Made by a program: the position numbers and the translations under genes. From a virus (taxonomy: Duplodnaviria > Heunggongvirae > Uroviricota > Caudoviricetes), in the IMG/VR virus record IMGVR_UViG_2713896798_000008: DNA of 64,000 nt; one strand, written 5' to 3'. Under the pieces are notes generated by a model. It had not been told where the DNA came from. It worked only from the letters and a program-made list of their open reading frames with translations, and searched no databases. Shown piece by piece: positions 1,394-57,781 of the stretch. The first letter of the stretch is position 1; the number at the start of each line of letters is the position of its first letter.

Positions 1394-3945
1394 CGCCTGC
1401 CTCCGGAAAATACGCCGCCATCACGCATCTGCGCCTGAATCTCATCCTGCGCCCCCTTGCGGGCCATGTCATACACCGCTTTCATCAGCTGCGGCCCTGC
1501 CTGCCCCCTGGTACCGTCGTTCTGAATCACCACGTGATTGTTCTGATTAAAATTAATGCCTTCCGTCCGCCGCATCTGCACCGGACTTCCGGCATCGCCG
1601 ACATAACCACCTTCCGCATAGCCCCGCATCAGGCGGTACAGGTTGCCGACACCAATCCGGCTGGTTGCCTCCTTCGTGAAGACAAACTCCCCGCGATGAA
1701 CAATCCCCGCAGGTTCATATTTACCTCCACTCCCGGTAAAACCCCCACCGGCAAATCCCATAGCTCCGGCCACGCTACTGACAACACCCACCATGGCCTG
1801 CTTCAGAAAAATCTCTGTCAGCATGGAGAGCACCGAACGGGTGAAACCTCGCCAGTCCTGCTCACTGCCGGTCAGCATTGCCGCCATATTCTGTGCAATA
1901 CCGTCAAAGGTCTGCGTGGCTGCACTCCTGACCTGCGAAAAACTGTCCGTCGCACTTTCCGCCCACTCGCCCCAGCCGGACTTCAGCCCGGCCATCCAGC
2001 TTCCACGAAGCTGCTCCTCCGCAGACCAGGTGTTCTTCAGTGCAGATGTGGCCTTCGCCAGCGCATCCGGATTATCACCATACACGTCACGAAGACGCTG
2101 CGATTCCGACTCCCGCTGTGCCTGACGGTCCGTCAGCCCCCGGGCTTTTGCGCTGATTGCAGCCTGCTTCGCACTCTGCTGCTGTTCAAACCGCGCAGCC
2201 TGATTTGCCAGCTCATTCAGCCGTTTCTGGTGCTCCACCTTGTCGCCCAGCTCAGCCAGCTGGCGTTTGTACTCAAGCGTCTCTTTCTCATGGGCCAGCA
2301 GGGATTTTTCCTGCTCAGATAACTGGCGTTTCGTGGCGGCCTCTTTCAGGACCGCATACTGATTTTCCGCTTTCCATAAATCACGGCGCTGCTGGCTGAT
2401 TTTCTCATTCGCACCGCTGTGCTTCTCCAGCGTCCTGAGCTCGGTTTCAAGCGCCAGCAGGGCTGCATGTGCCCGGTCTTCCTGGCGCTCACCGGCAGAC
2501 ACCTTCACACCGGACGGCTTTTTCTGCGTCGACTCATAATCCTTTTTTGCCGACGCCATCAGCGTGTTGTAATCCGCCTGCAGGATTTTCCCGTCTTTCA
2601 GGGCCTGATTCAGCTCCTTCTGGCGGGCGGTATATTTATCCAGCGGCGACAGCATCCGTTCATACGCCTTCTGTGCCTCTCCGGTATACTTCAGCTGTGA
2701 CGCGTCACGCTCAGCCTTATCCCTTGCCGCCAGTTCACCGGCTTTTTCCATATCCGACTGCAGCGTTGCCGCTGCCAGACTCAGACGGGCATTTTCACGG
2801 TCATCCCATGCCCCCTGAAGGTTGGCACGGAAAGAGGAGGTCTTTCCCCGGCGCTGGCTCCGGCTCTGGTACCACTGCCATTTTTTATCCGCCTCATCGA
2901 ATGCCTTCTGCGCACTGGCAAGCATATCCGCTGAGGATTCCGGACGACCAATATCCAGAATGGCATCCCACATCGATTTGAACGCCTTCCCTGTTTTATC
3001 CGCCCAGGTTTCCAGCGTCCCCATGTTTTCTTTCAGGCGACGGGTCTGCTCATCAAAGCCTTTCGTGGCGATATCGTTCGCCGCCTGCAATGCCCCGGCT
3101 TCATCTCCGGAACGCTGCAACTGAGCAACATACGCAATCTGCTCCGCCGTCACGTTACGGAACTGGCGTGCCATCGCCATCAGTCCCGACGTCGGGTCTG
3201 TGGTCAGCTTCCCGAAGGCTTCAGCGACCTTGTCCACCTCCACACCGGATGCAGAAGCAAAACGCGCGACACTCTGGTTGATGGCATCAAACTGTTCACC
3301 ACCACGCACACCGGCATTCACCAGGGCGGCCAGTGACTCACTCGCCTGGTTAAACGTCAGCCCTGCAGCCTGTCCGGCTCTGGAGAGCGTCAGCATGCGA
3401 TCGGCAGTCAGTCCGGACTGATTGCCGGAAAGGACCAGCGTTTTATTAAATTCTGAAAGCGTGGCGTCTCCCCGGTACCAGGCATACGCCAGCGCACCTG
3501 TCGCCACCGCCAGCGAGGTGACCCCGAACATCGGCAGGCTGATCGCTCCGGCAAGCCCCCTGAACATGGGGATCATCCCGCCGAAGGAGTCCTTCACCTG
3601 ACCGCCCTGTTGCAGCAGGATCAGCCAGGGATTCTGACCACCGGCAAGCTGCGTGGCCACGTCGGTGAACTGCATGGGTAGCATACGCATGGCCGCTTTA
3701 TACTGCCCGACGGAAATCCCGGCTTTTTGCGCAGCCAGCGCCTGACGGCTCAGGCCCTGTTCAACGGCAGTGGCCTGTTTATTAAAAGACTGGCTGACAC
3801 GCCCGGCCATCAAATCCGCAAGGTCACTGGTTTCCCCCAGTTCTTTCTTTACCCGTGCAGCCTCTTCAGAAAAACGGGTTGAATCCAGTGTAAGAACAGC
3901 TGTCAGATCGGCAAAATTACCCGCCATAGCGTACACCTCCTGCAA
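1390..3945 (-). CDS. H: Tail tape measure protein H
   Basis: 851-aa ORF, Ala/Gln-rich coiled-coil centre, lambda gpH-like length and position. Confidence 0.9.
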   Translation of the reverse strand: MQEVYAMAGNFADLTAVLTLDSTRFSEEAARVKKELGETSDLADLMAGRVSQSFNKQATAVEQGLSRQALAAQKAGISVGQYKAAMRMLPMQFTDVATQLAGGQNPWLILLQQGGQVKDSFGGMIPMFRGLAGAISLPMFGVTSLAVATGALAYAWYRGDATLSEFNKTLVLSGNQSGLTADRMLTLSRAGQAAGLTFNQASESLAALVNAGVRGGEQFDAINQSVARFASASGVEVDKVAEAFGKLTTDPTSGLMAMARQFRNVTAEQIAYVAQLQRSGDEAGALQAANDIATKGFDEQTRRLKENMGTLETWADKTGKAFKSMWDAILDIGRPESSADMLASAQKAFDEADKKWQWYQSRSQRRGKTSSFRANLQGAWDDRENARLSLAAATLQSDMEKAGELAARDKAERDASQLKYTGEAQKAYERMLSPLDKYTARQKELNQALKDGKILQADYNTLMASAKKDYESTQKKPSGVKVSAGERQEDRAHAALLALETELRTLEKHSGANEKISQQRRDLWKAENQYAVLKEAATKRQLSEQEKSLLAHEKETLEYKRQLAELGDKVEHQKRLNELANQAARFEQQQSAKQAAISAKARGLTDRQAQRESESQRLRDVYGDNPDALAKATSALKNTWSAEEQLRGSWMAGLKSGWGEWAESATDSFSQVRSAATQTFDGIAQNMAAMLTGSEQDWRGFTRSVLSMLTEIFLKQAMVGVVSSVAGAMGFAGGGFTGSGGKYEPAGIVHRGEFVFTKEATSRIGVGNLYRLMRGYAEGGYVGDAGSPVQMRRTEGINFNQNNHVVIQNDGTRGQAGPQLMKAVYDMARKGAQDEIQAQMRDGGVFSGGRR

Positions 3946-16075: not shown

Positions 16076-16521
16076 CCGATGTATGTCTCCGTCACCGCCG
16101 ACAGAAAATGAAAGTAAAGAAAAACAAAAAAACCGCCAGTGTCACCCACTGACGGCCAACTCCGGGAGCCGTGATTATGGCATTCAGGCTCTGCTAAAAA
16201 TGCCAGATAACATTCCGGCCCCCCCCTAGTTCAGGTTATAAATGACACAATATCTTGACAACATCCGTCACTGTCTGTCAGAAAATATACCGCCAGGCAT
16301 AAGTATCATGTGAAATCCAACTATCCTTTTGAGCCAGCACCTCTCCACCGAAAGTCAGTGCTGGCTGTTTTTTTCCTTAATAAAGCATCTGTAACTGAAA
16401 CAATCCGCATATTGATAATATATTGACAGGCATCATTGCTGTCTGTGAAAAATAAGTCTCTACAAACATATAAGGCCTTTTAGCCAGCGTCTTCTTTCAG
16501 GTCAGCCGCTGGCTTTTTTTA

Positions 16522-18423: not shown

Positions 18424-18953
18424 GAATCCTCCCGGCCGGGATAATGTTGTGAGTCAGATAAGGGGCGGGCTGAAGTCCGGAAGTTACAGGACAATGACAG
18501 AAGGAAGACTACAGCCCGCAATACGAAAAAGGCCGCGCAGTTGCGCAGCCTTATAAACCCTGGTTAAAATCCACACGATAAAAATGACAATGCAAGTATC
18601 TCATGCTGTTGCCCGAACCTACTCGGGCTTTTTTTGCATGTAAAAAGGCTCCTGCGATGAGGAGCCTGGATATATGCCTAATCTCTGTATACAGCATGAT
18701 GCCGGGTGCCTCCCGGTGAATTCTGCAATGACCAGACAGAATCCGCAACTTGCCTATACAATACGCAACCAAACATCTGTCATTATGCCCCGCCGCCCAG
18801 GGGGATTCATCATGCAGGATTTTTTTAACAAACGCTCAGCATGTCAGGCAACAGTCAACTACCTGAATTGTGAGGCATTTAACATTTCACTGTCCGGTGT
18901 CTTTCCTGTAATAAAAAGCCCGCAAAAGAGAGTCAGGGCAGATAAGTGTGGTG

Positions 18954-22954: not shown

Positions 22955-23233
22955 TTACCTCCAGATGCGCTGCTGGAATGTGCGGGACGGACGCGGTGGG
23001 CGTTCGGAATAAGGGAGCCTGACGGAGATTATCCAGTGACGACGATCGAAGCTGAGATCTTTCTGAAACTCGTAACCACGTCTGCGGTAGCACTGAATCA
23101 GCCATTCGGCCTGTTCTTCAGTGCATGGGTCATGCCGGAACCAGTCAGATTTGAATGCATGAGAACGCCGCCCGTGCCTGCTGGCAGGGGCGGCAGAGTT
23201 ATCCGAATTGTAAAATCTGGTATCGTGCGCCAT
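22955..23233 (-). CDS. Conserved small prophage protein (paralog at 48106-48384)
   Basis: Start taken at Met aligning with B copy (MAHDTRFYNSDNS...); shared C-terminus HWIISVRLPYSERPP. Confidence 0.5.
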   Translation of the reverse strand: MAHDTRFYNSDNSAAPASRHGRRSHAFKSDWFRHDPCTEEQAEWLIQCYRRRGYEFQKDLSFDRRHWIISVRLPYSERPPRPSRTFQQRIWR

Positions 23234-23348
23234 CAGTTTTCTCTGCTGACGCAGCAGGTGCCAGTTGTTCAGGCTGGCGTGCGAATTGTAAACCAGAATG
23301 CAAGGAAAAAACAAAACCCGCCGAAGCGGGTTTTCATTGGAAGCACCT

Positions 23349-23834
23349 TTAGTTTTGCTGTTCTATTTTAAGCTTGATAGTTTCATACAAAACAATAGTT
23401 GCGCCTGTTTTACATAATTCCCGGCTGTCATATGCACGAGACCAATAACACAACCAGTTCTCGAGATCTTCTCGAGTATAGGTTTTGCAGGCCAGTCCCT
23501 CTGCCATTTCCACGATTTCATCGCCTGGTGCTGTTAACTCATAGCCATTCAACAACAAGAAGACGTAACCAGCCATCATAGCTGTTCGTTTGTTCGCATT
23601 CGCAAACGGATGATTCTGAATCAGACTTTCAATCAATACCGATGCCAGTACAAACATGTCATTGATCTGTTTATACCATCGAACCATGCTGGGACGGGCC
23701 TGAGAAGAACTTAAGTTATCTGGACTCAGAACACCAACGGGTTCATCTGGCGTCTGTAATTCAATTAGGGAACGATTGATTTCAACAAGATCATCAACCG
23801 TAAGGTAATGCACTCCTTCAACAATCTCAGCCAT
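23349..23834 (-). CDS. Doc/Fic-family toxin-like protein
   Basis: HPFANANKRTA matches the Doc-type Fic motif HxFx(D/N)(A/G)NKR; C-terminal extension; start probably MAEIVEGVHYL. Confidence 0.7.
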   Translation of the reverse strand: MAEIVEGVHYLTVDDLVEINRSLIELQTPDEPVGVLSPDNLSSSQARPSMVRWYKQINDMFVLASVLIESLIQNHPFANANKRTAMMAGYVFLLLNGYELTAPGDEIVEMAEGLACKTYTREDLENWLCYWSRAYDSRELCKTGATIVLYETIKLKIEQQN

Positions 23835-23852
23835 AGAGCACAATACCCATCA

Positions 23853-24032
23853 TTACACTTTTGAAAGTTCTTCCATTGCCTTCTCGTAACGAGAAAAACC
23901 GAAATCGAAAGCATTTTTCACCTGCTCACGATGAGTGCAGTTTTCATCAATCGCCGGGCGAGGGGCTGCCACAACTCGTTTGTCGCGAGGCGGAATATTT
24001 AGCCGTGTGTGTTTCTTGAGTGCGTAGCTCAT
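23853..24032 (-). CDS. Small protein upstream of Doc-like gene (candidate antitoxin)
   Basis: 59-aa ORF from Met with AAGGGAAA SD; stop 10 bp before Doc-like ORF; palindrome TTAGATTAGTCTAA at 24106-24119 upstream. Confidence 0.4.
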   Translation of the reverse strand: MSYALKKHTRLNIPPRDKRVVAAPRPAIDENCTHREQVKNAFDFGFSRYEKAMEELSKV

Positions 24033-24240
24033 CTTGTCGTTTCCCTTGAAGTTCTTTTGGCAAGGCCAACGCACCAACCTGGCGCGTAATTAATGGTGTA
24101 GTACTAAGGTTAGATTAGTCTAATGCGGATAAAAATTTTTAGCTACCAAAACGACACTTTTGGTTCCTCCACCCCAATGTTAAAATAAGCCATCCGCCCC
24201 GCTCTCTTACTGGCGGATTCGTAAGCTATATAAATCAAAG

Positions 24241-24278
24241 ATCCCGGCTCATGTTTGTGTCGGGATCTTTTTTTTACG
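24241..24278 (+). terminator. Intrinsic terminator on plus strand (hairpin plus T8)
   Basis: GATCCCGGC..GTCGGGATC stem followed by TTTTTTTT; flanking genes are minus strand. Confidence 0.45.
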
Positions 24279-24283
24279 GTGAT

Positions 24284-24367
24284 TTATCCCCAGCGGCAAA
24301 TCGAATACACCACCAGCGCCACCGCCATCGCAATTCCTGCCGTTGTGAATGCTTCAGGCCTGGTCAT
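24284..24367 (-). CDS. 27-aa hydrophobic peptide, translationally coupled to upstream nin gene
   Basis: [31 protein letters not shown] start/stop overlap with preceding ORF. Confidence 0.3.
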
Positions 24368-24708
24368 CGTAAAACATCCTCCACGCTTGTCAGTCCGTTT
24401 CGCTCCAGGTAGTCCATCGCCTTATCCGGCAGTTTGCAGTCCGGCTTCGCTTTCCTCAGTTGCCAGGCTAACTGCTTTACCTGCATAGTTAACTCGTCGA
24501 CCAGACGCTGATACCCCACTGGTTTGTATTCATGCAATTTACCGACTGGCTCTGCTGCCAGCGATGCCAGTGCGATTTCCAGAACAGCAATATCCATCTT
24601 ATATGTGCGGATGATGTCATGGTCGATTGTGCTCGGTATGCACAGTCTCTGTGCTTCAATGGTCTCCTCTGCGTGAGCTATTAACTGCTCTCTGGTAAAA
24701 GTAGTCAT
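24364..24708 (-). CDS. Hypothetical nin-region protein
   Basis: 114-aa ORF with GAGGA SD; degenerate copy of this region at 58750-58860. Confidence 0.5.
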
Positions 24709-24711
24709 GTG

Positions 24712-24999
24712 TTAGTCCTCATCCACTTCAACGCCATCTTTCAGCGTGATGCCGTGCCAATCATCAGCCCAACTGGTTAACCCTGGCGCATCAATGCTAG
24801 GCATATAGACTCTTGCAGTGTGGTAGCCCTTATCGTTATCAATGCTGGCAACGTGCTCGCCGTTGTATGCGCTCAGCGTGTCCAGGACGCTATAAAACTT
24901 TCCTCCGGCTGCCCTGAAATCCTTTACAGCCTTCACAAGGCGCTTCCACGCTTTTTCCTGTTCTGGCGTCAGGCCGATTAATTCCTGCAAAGTAGCCAT
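24712..24999 (-). CDS. Hypothetical nin-region protein
   Basis: Start at MATLQELIGL with AAGGAG SD; overlaps stop of upstream gene. Confidence 0.5.
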   Translation of the reverse strand: MATLQELIGLTPEQEKAWKRLVKAVKDFRAAGGKFYSVLDTLSAYNGEHVASIDNDKGYHTARVYMPSIDAPGLTSWADDWHGITLKDGVEVDED

Positions 25000-25001
25000 G
25001 T

Positions 25002-25361
25002 TCACTCTCCTTTGATGCCAATGTTTACAGCCTGGCAGGCCTCTTTGAGCACCCAATCAACGGCATCTTTCCACGCTCCGGTTTCGACTGGCGGATTTTC
25101 ACGCTTAACCTGTTCATAGAAGCGCACTGCTTTAATCAATCCTTCTGGTGTCAGTGGCACAGCCTGGGTCGTAAATAACTCCTGAATTTCATAGTTCGGT
25201 CTGTCGTTGCAATCCTCTTTTGTCGGTACATATTTCCAGTCACCAACCCTCTGCTTCCCCTGAAAGTCTGTAACGTCTTTTTTCACGTAGCGATATCGCC
25301 ATGCCACTGGTTTTGCCTGCCCTGCCGTTTCATGCCCTTCCTGATAATTAATCTCGCTCAT
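25002..25361 (-). CDS. Hypothetical nin-region protein
   Basis: 119-aa ORF in operon context. Confidence 0.5.
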   Translation of the reverse strand: MSEINYQEGHETAGQAKPVAWRYRYVKKDVTDFQGKQRVGDWKYVPTKEDCNDRPNYEIQELFTTQAVPLTPEGLIKAVRFYEQVKRENPPVETGAWKDAVDWVLKEACQAVNIGIKGE

Positions 25362-25534
25362 TCATCGCCCCACTCATCACAATATGCTTCGACCGGAGTT
25401 TTTCCTGCTTCATAGTCATCACGCCATGCTTCAGCATCGGCGGCACTTCCACCGCGTAACTCTGCATAGTCCATTAACAGTTCATGCCATTCTTCAAAAC
25501 TGGCGTTATATTTAGTTGAACCAAAATCAGCCAT
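25358..25534 (-). CDS. Small acidic hypothetical protein (58 aa)
   Basis: MADFGSTKYN...CDEWGDE; ATGA overlap with downstream gene start. Confidence 0.4.
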   Translation of the reverse strand: MADFGSTKYNASFEEWHELLMDYAELRGGSAADAEAWRDDYEAGKTPVEAYCDEWGDE

Positions 25535-37800: not shown

Positions 37801-38376
37801 CTACGGCAGTGCTGGCCATTCAATATCCGGTGCAGTTGATGTATCAACACGGTTCAGCAACACCCGATACTTTTTCCAGGCTTCCAGCAACAAGGTTTCT
37901 TCCTCCGTTGCGATCTCCAGATCCACAGCATCCTGAAGCGGCGCTATATGCTCACTGGCTATCTGCATCAGGCTGTTTTTTGTTTCTTCCGCCTCCCGGA
38001 TCCGGAACAGTTTTTCTGCTTCCGTATCCTTCACCCAGGCTGTGCCGTTCCACTTCTGATATTCCCCTCCCGGCGATAACCAGGTAACATTTTCCGGTAA
38101 CGGACCGAGTTCAGAAATAAATAACGCGTCGCCGGAAGCCACGTCATAAACCGTTTTACCCCGATGATCTTCAACGAGATGCCACGATGCCTCATCACTG
38201 TTGAAAACAGCCACGAAGCCTGCCGGAATATCTGGCGGTGCAATATCGGTACTGTTTGCTGGCAGACCTGTATGAGGCGGAATATATGCGTCACCTTCAC
38301 CAATAAATTCATTAGTTCCGGCCAGCAGATTATAAATTTTTATGGTCCGTGGTTGTTCACTCATTCTGAATGCCAT
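37801..38376 (-). CDS. Tail fiber assembly protein (Tfa)
   Basis: 191-aa ORF, Tfa-like; adjacent to pin and tail fiber C-terminal fragment. Confidence 0.8.
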
Positions 38377-42025: not shown

Positions 42026-42254
42026 GCAAAAAAGCTCCCGAAGGAGCCTTCATTTTCACTTTTTTAAATCCAACGACAGACGGCTGGCATTTAAGTATTG
42101 TGAAATATTATCAAATGTAATCATCATTGATTTACAAAAGATACATTTTGCCCCGAAAGGATTCATGTCAGAAACATCAAAAGATGATGTTCTATACTGG
42201 GAACCATGACAACACGGGCATCTAAAGTGAATATGGTTTGTAATATTGTCTACC

Positions 42255-42467
42255 TCAAAGCGCCACTACATGAACAGCGGCAGGACCTTTAGGTCCGTTC
42301 TCAATACCAAATTCAACTTCCTGATTCTCAGTTAATGTTTTGAAATCGTTGCTCTGAATTGCTGAGAAATGGACAAACACATCTTTGCTGCCATCTTTCG
42401 GCGTGATGAAACCAAAACCTTTTTCAGGGTTAAACCATTTCACTAAACCAGTCATTTTGTTAGACAT
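42255..42467 (-). CDS. cspI: Cold shock protein CspI-like
   Basis: 70-aa CSD protein [21 protein letters not shown]. Confidence 0.85.
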
Positions 42468-42829
42468 AATTATTACCTTTTGAAGAAATTAGCCCTTGGG
42501 CAGAATGGTCCGAAAAAAAATATCAGAGAGAAAAACCAACAAGGAAATCTCAAGAGGTACAAATAATAAAATTATAACAATGACTGCTTCAGATAAATTT
42601 GTAACAAACCAGAACACCATTAACGCATGATTAACCACCCATAGCAAGGATTACTTTTGTAAAGAAAAACACAGCAATGAAAGAATGGCTTTATTTATTA
42701 ATAAAACGTGTCATTCTGATTAAGACCTTTTATCTTACCCTTAAGATTTCAGGAATTTTGGCTCATGGAAGAGTCCTTTTTATTTAAATTTTACATTCCG
42801 CGATGTAAATGTTCCGATTTAATATTACC

Positions 42830-44775: not shown

Positions 44776-45138
44776 TTGATTTTATTAGTAACAAGTATTT
44801 TTTATATTTTAATAATATATTTAAAGCAGATAATAAAAAACCCGCCTGAGCGGGTTTGAGATTGTGGTGCTTTTTGTGGGAGTCATCCACTTACGCACTT
44901 TGTTTTGCCATGCCAGCAGTTAGCTTCTGCTGTAAAACTATTCATGCAGCAAACCTGCACTTCACCACAATGGTTAGCATACTTTTCCTGATTAAGATTT
45001 TGCCAAATATGCTAGCCATTGTTTCATGTATTGGACCTCCTTACTTTTTATTAAAGAGATCCAATATTCACTACTCTGTCCGTATCTCTACTCAGGCATC
45101 AGCCTTCTTCGTTATCGTATACAGACGAGCGATGAATT

Positions 45139-45354
45139 TTAATCAGTAATGATGACATTTGCTGCTGCAGGACCTTTAGCACCACTCTCTATAGAGAAGG
45201 TAACCTTTTGACCTTCAAATAAGGTTCGATAATTATCATTCTGAATCGCAGAAAAATGCACAAACACATCTTTACTACCATCAACAGGAGAAATAAAGCC
45301 GAAACCTTTATCAGCGTTAAACCATTTTACTAAACCAGTCATTTTATTTGACAT
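45139..45354 (-). CDS. cspB: Cold shock protein CspB-like
   Basis: 71-aa CSD protein. Confidence 0.85.
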
Positions 45355-45654
45355 TCTACATTCCTTAACTTGAGCCTTTCGGCATAAATGGTTTGCATAA
45401 CAGAAACGACTTCGTACTTAATTGGAGAGACTCAAAGAAGGAATAAGTGAATAACACCTGAAATGAGAACTGCTTTAGTAAACTACTTCGTATATCGTCT
45501 GTTCTTCAAACCGACGCAATCATTAACGCATAGTTGAACATATGAAGCAATGTTTATTTTAGACATCCAGCCATCTTCAACCCCATCAAAAAACTATAGC
45601 TTTCTTCAGGAACGTGTGTATAGTGCGCCAAGTTATCAGTATTAAGGAATTTTT

Positions 45655-57341: not shown

Positions 57342-57781
57342 GAAAAATCCCCCAGAGAATTGTCTGGGGACATTTTAGAATGGTTCAAAGGGGACATTAC
57401 AGCTTGGTGTTAACAATAGCCTGCTTCTCCGTGCCTTTCGGCACGTAAGAGGCTAACCTACATGTGTCTAGCATGAAATTGGCCTCAGATTAATGTTAAG
57501 CGTCTTGCAGGACGCGTAATGTTAACTGGGGCTTTTCTCTATCTGCCGTTGGTGTCCATGCCCGAGGCAGATAGCCTCAAGCACCCGCAGTCATTCTACT
57601 TAACTAAGATTTCCCCGCAAACCGTTTTTGTCCAGCACAGTAAATATCCAACTAAACCAATGGAGTTCGCTGTATTTACCGCCAGTATTCAATGCACATG
57701 ACCGCCATGAACACCCCTAAAAAAAGGGCATTTATATATCCAAATATTAATATCAAAACATCAACTTTTTCCATATACCTT

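Follow-up and report, generated by a model that had tools for sequence, protein, structure and literature searches.

Two short and mutually independent elements meet near position 24284 of the window, by which we mean the whole stretch of 64,000 nucleotides from IMG/VR virus record IMGVR_UViG_2713896798_000008 that was analysed here, and which is part of a lambdoid prophage of Escherichia coli. The first is an open reading frame (ORF) of 27 codons on the minus strand, the second a module of ~105 bp (24178-24283) that ends in a plus-strand hairpin followed by a run of T. Both are conserved. We consider it probable that the arrangement as a whole is explained by two independent modules abutting at a mosaic junction of the prophage: a small gene whose translation would depend on coupling to, or re-initiation after, the gene that happens to stand before it, and a module that would mark the boundary of a toxin-antitoxin (TA) 'moron' slot. 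Judged by comparison with related loci, the module is a boundary element of this slot, and its terminator is the leftover of a convergent parDE operon that was lost from the window. The features concerned are the following.

24284-24367, minus strand: ORF of 27 codons for a small, predicted single-pass hydrophobic peptide; length, coupling and Shine-Dalgarno (SD) sequence are conserved, and no family model fits.
24240-24275, plus strand: intrinsic terminator with a 9-bp stem, a 10-nt loop and T8 (24268-24275), recognized by fold energy, retained pairing and adjacency to parE.
24178-24186, plus strand: extended -10-like element TGTTAAAAT, the exact left edge of homology with parDE-type loci.
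24192-24275, plus strand: predicted RNA of ~84 nt, based on the extended -10 and the fold, its expression being likewise predicted.

The peptide ORF begins inside the gene that precedes it. Its ATG (24367-24365) overlaps the TGA (24366-24364) of a 114-aa ORF as ATGA, and an SD sequence GGAGG is located within that ORF 10 nt upstream of the start (24382-24378). Among the homologues compared (933W, Av-05, 24-2-1, WGPS2, YYZ-2008, PhiR12_4 and the E. coli loci L002-L008) the ATGA overlap with the preceding gene is invariable and an SD is always present, 4-10 nt upstream. The preceding gene itself varies: it is a DUF551, Ea22-like or EaA gene, L0139 of 933W or, in the window, the gene of the 114-aa protein. 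Since ATGA and SD are kept behind at least five unrelated upstream genes, the ORF is best regarded as a genuine, translationally coupled and conserved protein-coding gene. This bears out the first-pass annotation, which had described a hydrophobic peptide of 27 aa coupled to the upstream ORF through ATGA.

The encoded sequence points in the same direction. Its length is exactly 27 codons in all 14 intact homologues, about 17 consecutive residues are apolar or small, and the family follows the motif M[TS]WP[ED]A..G......[VI][YF][SA].CRWG, of which the N- and C-terminal parts are invariant. Variable sites are distributed over codon positions 1/2/3 as 17/11/23, a bias toward synonymous change (mean ratio of nonsynonymous to synonymous polymorphism, pN/pS, 0.36). 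One phage copy, that of Shigella phage POCJ13, carries an in-frame TAG at codon 3. In the window the otherwise conserved Trp3 is replaced by Arg (TGG to AGG, 24359-24361); five parDE-type IMG/VR loci share the change, which makes it a recurrent polymorphism rather than a mutation private to the window. Judged by its composition, the peptide is predicted to span the membrane once, as a helix in which small residues (G11/A13/A15/A17) pack, with the RWG end in the cytoplasm.

The first-pass annotation had made its case depend in part on conservation of the ORF, and the ORF is indeed conserved. A search at the DNA level located it in 1,610 of 5,426 complete E. coli genomes, at 3,063 places, with up to seven per genome, and tblastn detected it in 92 phage records. 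The 161 places on plasmids (about 82% identity) are on E. coli plasmids of 87-102 kb, e.g., NZ_CP021336.1 (19487-19570). Copies were also found in Vequintavirinae-type phages (the virulent-type Av-05; L010, 1201-1284), where the ORF stands behind DUF551- or EaA-like genes as it does on the plasmids. It therefore travels well beyond lambdoid prophages.

Despite this distribution, RefSeq annotation lacks the peptide ORF and gives the overlapping upstream gene as the feature at each match. By exact look-up the peptide proved to be annotated only sporadically, in a few older records, as 'hypothetical' or 'bacteriophage protein'; an apparent clustering with DUF551 proteins in this look-up was rejected as an artefact of partial entries. 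No family model of Pfam, NCBIfam or PHROGs fits the peptide. The only matches had E-values of 0.002-0.2 and were driven by hydrophobic composition; among the best, KdpF, DUF883_C and unnamed PHROGs were hit at E = 0.02-0.2. Full-text literature searches for the peptide sequence and for the module sequence gave nothing relevant. The peptide resembles small membrane proteins of less than 50 aa, such as KdpF, AcrZ, MgtS and the 'membrane protein' morons among the PHROGs, in its predicted single hydrophobic helix, its G/A spacing and its positive C-terminal end, and such proteins are routinely left out by annotation pipelines. However, it matches none of them significantly, and it is set apart by its constant ATGA coupling to upstream genes that vary.

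The second element ends in the hairpin formed by GATCCCGGC (24240-24248) and GTCGGGATC (24259-24267). On the plus strand it folds with -20.7 kcal/mol (z = -5.6), and none of 200 shuffled sequences was as stable, in line with the strong plus-strand hairpin and T8 that the first-pass annotation had placed next to the peptide ORF. The minus-strand fold is weaker by ~6 kcal/mol (-14.8 kcal/mol), with A8 before and CUUUGAUUUAU after the hairpin, and the G.U pairs of the stem exist on the plus strand only, since they become A.C on the minus strand. The structure has therefore been shaped as plus-strand RNA, which is what a terminator of parDE would lead one to expect. Across 19 distinct variants, 98.8% of the cells in two hairpins, the terminator and the 5' hairpin of the predicted RNA, remain paired. 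The terminator stem shows one compensatory change (A-U to C-G), and one-sided changes in the hairpins are compatible with pairing (G.U to A-U, C-G to U.G). Taken by fold and retained pairing, the hairpin and T-run are a genuine plus-strand Rho-independent terminator. A simple terminator scan, which allows loops of at most 8 nt, missed it because its loop measures 10 nt.

In 66 of 71 loci this terminator is located about 80 nt past the stop codon of parE. It thereby resembles the intrinsic terminators of lambdoid moron and TA operons, which likewise consist of a GC-rich stem and U-run between convergent units and which, flanked by runs of A and of T on opposite sides, form a hairpin on both strands. 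The window copy differs in that the operon which it terminated is gone and in that G.U pairs and U8 are confined to the plus strand. Its loop (24249-24258, plus strand), UCAUGUUUGU, is GU-rich, varies among relatives and is reminiscent of the GcvB seed; on the minus strand, CACAAACA occurs within the complement of the loop and the stem base next to it and comes near to CACAACA, the consensus of GcvB targets quoted by Tree et al. (2014, PMC4104026). This likeness is probably a coincidence.

The distribution of the module reveals where the terminator came from. Besides phage ArgO145, 326 of the 5,426 complete E. coli genomes carry it (24178-24290, about 90% identity), and its copies are 85-100% identical to each other. 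In loci L004-L008 it starts about 20 nt past the stop codon of parE, and the plus-strand pair parD-parE converges on the early operon; Pfam confirms ParD (PF03693) and ParE (PF05016) in the relatives. A pattern scan of IMG/VR added 65 module loci, giving a total of 72. The left neighbour is parE in 66 of these and phd in five, while one has too little left flank. On the other side, the module is found 7-8 nt from the peptide stop codon in all 71 copies with enough right flank. According to ORF list, RefSeq and Pfam, the window has neither parD nor parE beside the module and contains phd-doc instead. The other phd-adjacent copies are L001, L020, L039 and L022, a variant with another gene upstream; the phd-doc arrangement as such was found in six genomes and in the IMG/VR contigs L020, L039 and L022. 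Strains such as SMN013SH2 and SCPM-O-B-9504 have the window-type locus, whereas strains of O26:H11 and O111:H8 and lysogens of phage ArgO145 are of the parDE type. A search for the module with parE in other species yielded only a ParE of Salmonella (80% identity) and a distant Noviherbaspirillum match. The 3' flank of the Salmonella gene is unrelated and comprises neither module nor peptide ORF. Thus the module is not part of parDE proper.

These observations change what the hairpin means. The first-pass annotation had taken it to imply a short local transcript of the plus strand; because it ends the parDE operon in 66 of 71 loci, it does not by itself do so. In most relatives hairpin and U-run would end parD-parE transcription and keep it from running antisense into the early operon. 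In the window, recombination would have exchanged the convergent parDE for a co-directional phd-doc, with a break point just left of 24178, and the module would have been orphaned. Such a recombinational cassette exchange would be the simplest history.

The slot next to the peptide gene has received other cassettes as well. The homology between the window and its sister prophages with hokD (L002 and L003) breaks exactly past the peptide stop codon, and there these prophages have a complete hok/sok locus followed by phd-doc. In 933W the order is L0139, the unannotated peptide ORF and sokW/mokW/hokW. The position past the peptide ORF, with its boundary at 24284, is thus an exchange point for addiction modules and holds hok/sok with phd-doc, convergent parDE or phd-doc alone (L002, 3929-4084; L003, 3949-4104; L009, 2676-2950; L004-L008, about 1916-2478). 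Homology breaks exactly at the peptide stop codon or at the -10-like motif. Another full sok/hok-type locus (RF01794, 104 bits) was detected in the window at 57415-57586 on the minus strand, about 33 kb away.

The real hok/sok in the same slot of sister prophages is also the reason why the locus looks like a type I arrangement, a resemblance to which the first-pass annotation had pointed. Under such a reading the 27-aa peptide would be a membrane toxin and the plus-strand RNA its antisense antitoxin. Peptides of type I toxins are short and hydrophobic too (toxicity of this one would be a prediction), and the convergent RNA unit is only 8 nt away, so that peptide and opposite-strand small RNA recall hokD or hokW/sokW directly past the ORF. 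However, with ends at 24275 for the predicted RNA and at 24284 for the ORF, the RNA and the peptide mRNA do not overlap, and duplex scans gave no complementarity above shuffled controls. The ORF is coupled within a long operon, has neither a promoter nor a structured leader of its own and is often followed directly by another gene. It is found in about five times as many genomes as the module (1,610 versus 326) and occurs without it in 933W, Av-05, YYZ-2008 and others, and the partner on the other side of the module is parDE in the 66 loci mentioned. In addition, the slot of the window has neither a hok ORF nor a sok match, and the peptide gene is not part of the hok cassettes, which follow it. 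We consider a type I pair very improbable indeed; its distribution largely refutes it. The related idea that the module might be a remnant of sok was rejected as well: the sok model RF01794 (104-114 bits at L002, at L009 and at 57415-57586 of the window) does not hit the module in a scan of 23000-25500 at E <= 10, and only the 8-nt sequence TTAACATT is shared.

Besides serving as the leftover end of parDE, the module might be a small RNA (sRNA) gene in its own right. The first-pass annotation had let a plus-strand transcript start at about 24080 and had pointed to 24050-24240 for its promoter. This start is not supported: our promoter scanner found no plus-strand promoter-like site near 24080 or anywhere in 23300-24170. 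The only upstream promoter-like sequence is TGTTAAAAT, which in the window remains below the scanner's criteria and is a consensus match only. Any RNA would consequently measure ~84 nt, begin near A24192 and end at 24275, with 8 nt left before the peptide gene. The scanner did report the corresponding site of L005, a locus of the parDE type, as TTTACC-16-TAGAAT with TG. Sites of the form TGNTANAAT occur only six times on both strands of the window, and for any given terminator the probability that one falls in the 100 nt preceding it is about 0.005, not corrected for the post hoc choice of the motif. TAnAAT (TAGAAT or TAAAAT) is kept in all 22 sequence variants of the module, and only the E2863-type variants lack the TG of the extended -10 (they read TAT), while it is shifted in the type of L065 (TGG). 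For a test of the promoter, the mutant form of TGTTAAAAT would be TGTTCCCAT.

The predicted RNA has a compact architecture. Its 5' hairpin (24192-24218) consists of a 7-bp stem, ATCCGCC/GGCGGAT, and a CU-rich loop of 13 nt, UCUCUUACU; a linker of 21 nt (24219-24239), the AU-rich UUCGUAAGCUAUAUAAAUCAAA, is unpaired in the minimum free energy (MFE) and centroid structures, and the terminator with its Hfq-type run (U8 in the window, U6-U7 in relatives) completes the molecule. The whole folds with an MFE of -31 kcal/mol (z = -5.2). The 5' stem is paired in 100% of cells, with changes restricted to those compatible with pairing (G.U/A-U, C-G/U.G), and the linker and -10, together with the core of the loop, are the least variable non-coding segments of the module, a result that for the linker is partly circular, as explained below.

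From these features one might envision an autonomous, trans-acting sRNA gene of Hfq type with TGTTAAAAT as its own promoter, which would be transcribed downstream of parE as well as in the window and would use its CU-rich loop or its AU-rich linker to regulate mRNAs of the host or of the phage. The unit left after the cassette swap spans exactly the -10 to the terminator, and the module is separable from parDE, as its absence from the Salmonella homologue indicates. Short convergent sRNAs between morons and conserved phage ORFs were previously described (Tree et al. 2014, PMC4104026), and the prophage already holds AgvB, STnc100 and a PasA-like gene. The 8-mer GTTAAAAT of TGTTAAAAT precedes the AgvB gene of the window, too, by 5 nt. 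There the -10 reads GGTTAAAAT at the same distance from the gene, and a good -35 is lacking. However, recent common ancestry and a role as terminator explain the conservation of the module equally well, its expression and any binding of Hfq are predictions, and the scans described next brought neither a known family nor a convincing target. That an RNA of ~84 nt with Hfq-type architecture is expressed from the orphan module appears to us an evenly balanced proposition. A fully autonomous sRNA gene is possible, yet on the whole rather unlikely, and a regulatory role for the ~84-nt RNA we regard as doubtful.

Comparison with known sRNA families did not assign the module to any of them. Rfam at gathering score gave nothing at the module in a scan of the whole window, and a permissive scan of 23000-25500 (E <= 10) returned only sub-threshold chance matches there, to anti-hemB (17.9 bits) and asX2 (16.3 bits); Esr41 and DicF likewise had no match at the module in these scans. 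An identity with one of the Pas sRNAs was considered and rejected. Partial PasA and PasD sequences, reconstructed with the supplement to PMC8550237, and the PasB locus of E2348/69 show no similarity to the module; PasC could be judged only through its reported similarity to PasA. In organization, the module resembles AgvB and AsxR (PMC4104026) and PasA-D (Pearl Mizrahi et al. 2021, PMC8550237): all are short convergent units between a moron and a conserved phage ORF, with a long U-run and pathogenic or bovine E. coli hosts, and GTTAAAAT is shared with the AgvB gene of the window. In contrast, it has no sequence or covariance-model similarity to AgvB, AsxR, STnc100, sok or the available Pas fragments and locus, and it is located in the TA slot of the nin region and not downstream of PR'.

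A third possibility concerns effects in cis. Comparable to lambda OOP or paQ RNA, a short plus-strand transcript or convergent transcription might trim the expression of downstream genes in the lysogen, by pairing with, or running into, RNA that reads through from the early operon in the interval from the peptide gene to phd-doc-Q. The unit converges on the early-right operon from a position upstream of phd-doc, rusA and Q, its RNA would have complete complementarity to the intergenic stretch of a read-through transcript, and the hairpin forms on both strands. OOP is similar: it, too, is short and converges on the lambdoid early-right operon, and it has a promoter and a terminator of its own such as are proposed for the module; however, OOP overlaps the 3' end of cII, whereas the unit of the window stops 8 nt short of the ORF and has no sequence similarity to it. 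The bias of the hairpin toward the plus strand and the position of the element downstream of parE in most relatives, where its role as terminator is obvious, speak against this purely inferential scenario, and we think it very improbable. On the minus strand the terminator hairpin may still act as a partial or weak barrier to read-through from the early operon into phd-doc. Attenuation by translation was rejected from the spacing in the sequence: a ribosome that terminates at the peptide stop codon would still be 16 nt away from the minus-strand stem and thus could not melt it.

Several points weigh against our explanation by two independent modules and against the details attached to it. For the peptide, translation and membrane insertion are predictions, and a pN/pS of 0.36 over 26 codons is only moderate evidence. 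Promoter and RNA are predictions as well, the -35 of the window is poor (TTGGTT at 15 bp), and among all start regions in the window no target scored above shuffled controls: the best energies were -20.6 for the loop and -14.0 for the linker, compared to averages of -19.7 and -14.6 for shuffled seeds. Covariation is thin, with one compensatory pair, and conservation of the module is no greater than that of the flanking genes. Since the pattern used for the IMG/VR collection fixed the linker sequence, linker invariance is partly circular. Finally, termination on the minus strand is conjecture, as directly 3' of the stem there is only UUU.

Current understanding is not overturned by these results; the main gain is an unannotated gene family and a candidate sRNA. 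With copies in about 30% of the complete E. coli genomes, and also in 933W and other Stx phages, the 27-codon gene is a concrete small-protein candidate. In addition, boundary elements, that is the terminator and perhaps an sRNA promoter, outlast swaps among three kinds of addiction modules. If the module is transcribed, it would add one more convergent sRNA to the repertoire of bovine and pathogenic E. coli prophages. One might speculate further, as a tentative prediction that we consider rather unlikely on the whole, that peptide gene and module together mark a fixed 'docking point' for the exchange of hok/sok, parDE and phd-doc, that the module represents an undescribed sRNA family and that the ORF founds a new family of small membrane proteins. 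If true, about 6% of complete E. coli genomes would contain a prophage sRNA family with its own extended -10, made as an RNA of the parE 3' flank and, in the window, from a free-standing gene, and for about 30% of E. coli genomes the RefSeq annotation would be missing a new phage family of small membrane proteins.

The surroundings of the junction can be read from complete genomes. The region 23300-25400 is 100% identical to six of them, obtained from cattle, raw milk and humans, e.g., NZ_CP023673. There the minus strand encodes replication genes through DUF1627, DUF4406, DUF7167, several small ORFs, the 114-aa ORF, the Doc toxin with its small upstream partner, DUF968, RusA and antiterminator Q. 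Based on this gene order and these strands, peptide ORF and hairpin are located in the nin-like part of the early-right operon. The first-pass annotation was also right that all neighbouring genes lie on the minus strand, apart from one dubious overlapping 'hypothetical protein' on the plus strand of NZ_CP023673 (23159-23371 of the window). The adjacent features are as follows.

24364-24708, minus strand: hypothetical ORF of 114 aa, WP_000206829.1 (RefSeq), without a Pfam match.
24036-24177, minus strand: phd-doc upstream region, present in the window-type arrangement only, with the palindromes TTAGATTAGTCTAA and TAGTACTA at about 24098-24123.
23853-24032, minus strand: putative antitoxin gene of the Doc module, 59 aa, WP_000119357.1; it adjoins doc, has no Pfam match and owes its proposed role to its position.
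23349-23834, minus strand: Doc toxin gene (Fic/DOC family), named so in RefSeq and matching PF02661 (E = 1.5e-11).
23313-23334, minus strand: strong terminator at the end of the phd-doc cassette, consisting of AAAACCCGCTTCGGCGGGTTTT and a T-run behind it (terminator scan).

The segment upstream of phd-doc (about 24030-24185) was found in only 6 of the 5,426 complete E. coli genomes, all of them window-type. The palindromes TTAGATTAGTCTAA and TAGTACTA are probably operator sites of Phd, and 24095-24135 looks like the operator region of phd-doc; in L002 and L003, too, phd is preceded by TTAG..CTAA motifs. The stem-loop core of the terminator behind doc, CCCGCTTCGGCGGG, is the one that ends the hokD transcript in L003, and in L002 the hokD transcript ends in a closely related stem. 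Each TA cassette thus seems to bring a terminator of this type at its own downstream end.

Other sRNA genes were detected elsewhere in the window. At 16328-16362 on the plus strand, 35 of 35 nt match the 3' half of the sRNA PasA from enteropathogenic E. coli (GCCAGCACCUCUCCACCGAAAGUCAGUGCU), followed by GGCTG and a T-run. The PasA-like gene at about 16290-16372 differs in its 5' part, is probably a PasA variant and has no Rfam model. The gene of AgvB (anti-GcvB) was found at 18576-18635 on the plus strand with 56.2 bits, just at the gathering score, back-to-back with STnc100 (18636-18844, minus strand, 175.6 bits) and beside tRNA genes downstream of Q. At gathering score, Rfam further identified an IS009 element (37835-38033) and two thermoregulator leaders of the cspA type (42228-42613 and 45123-45515), all on the minus strand.

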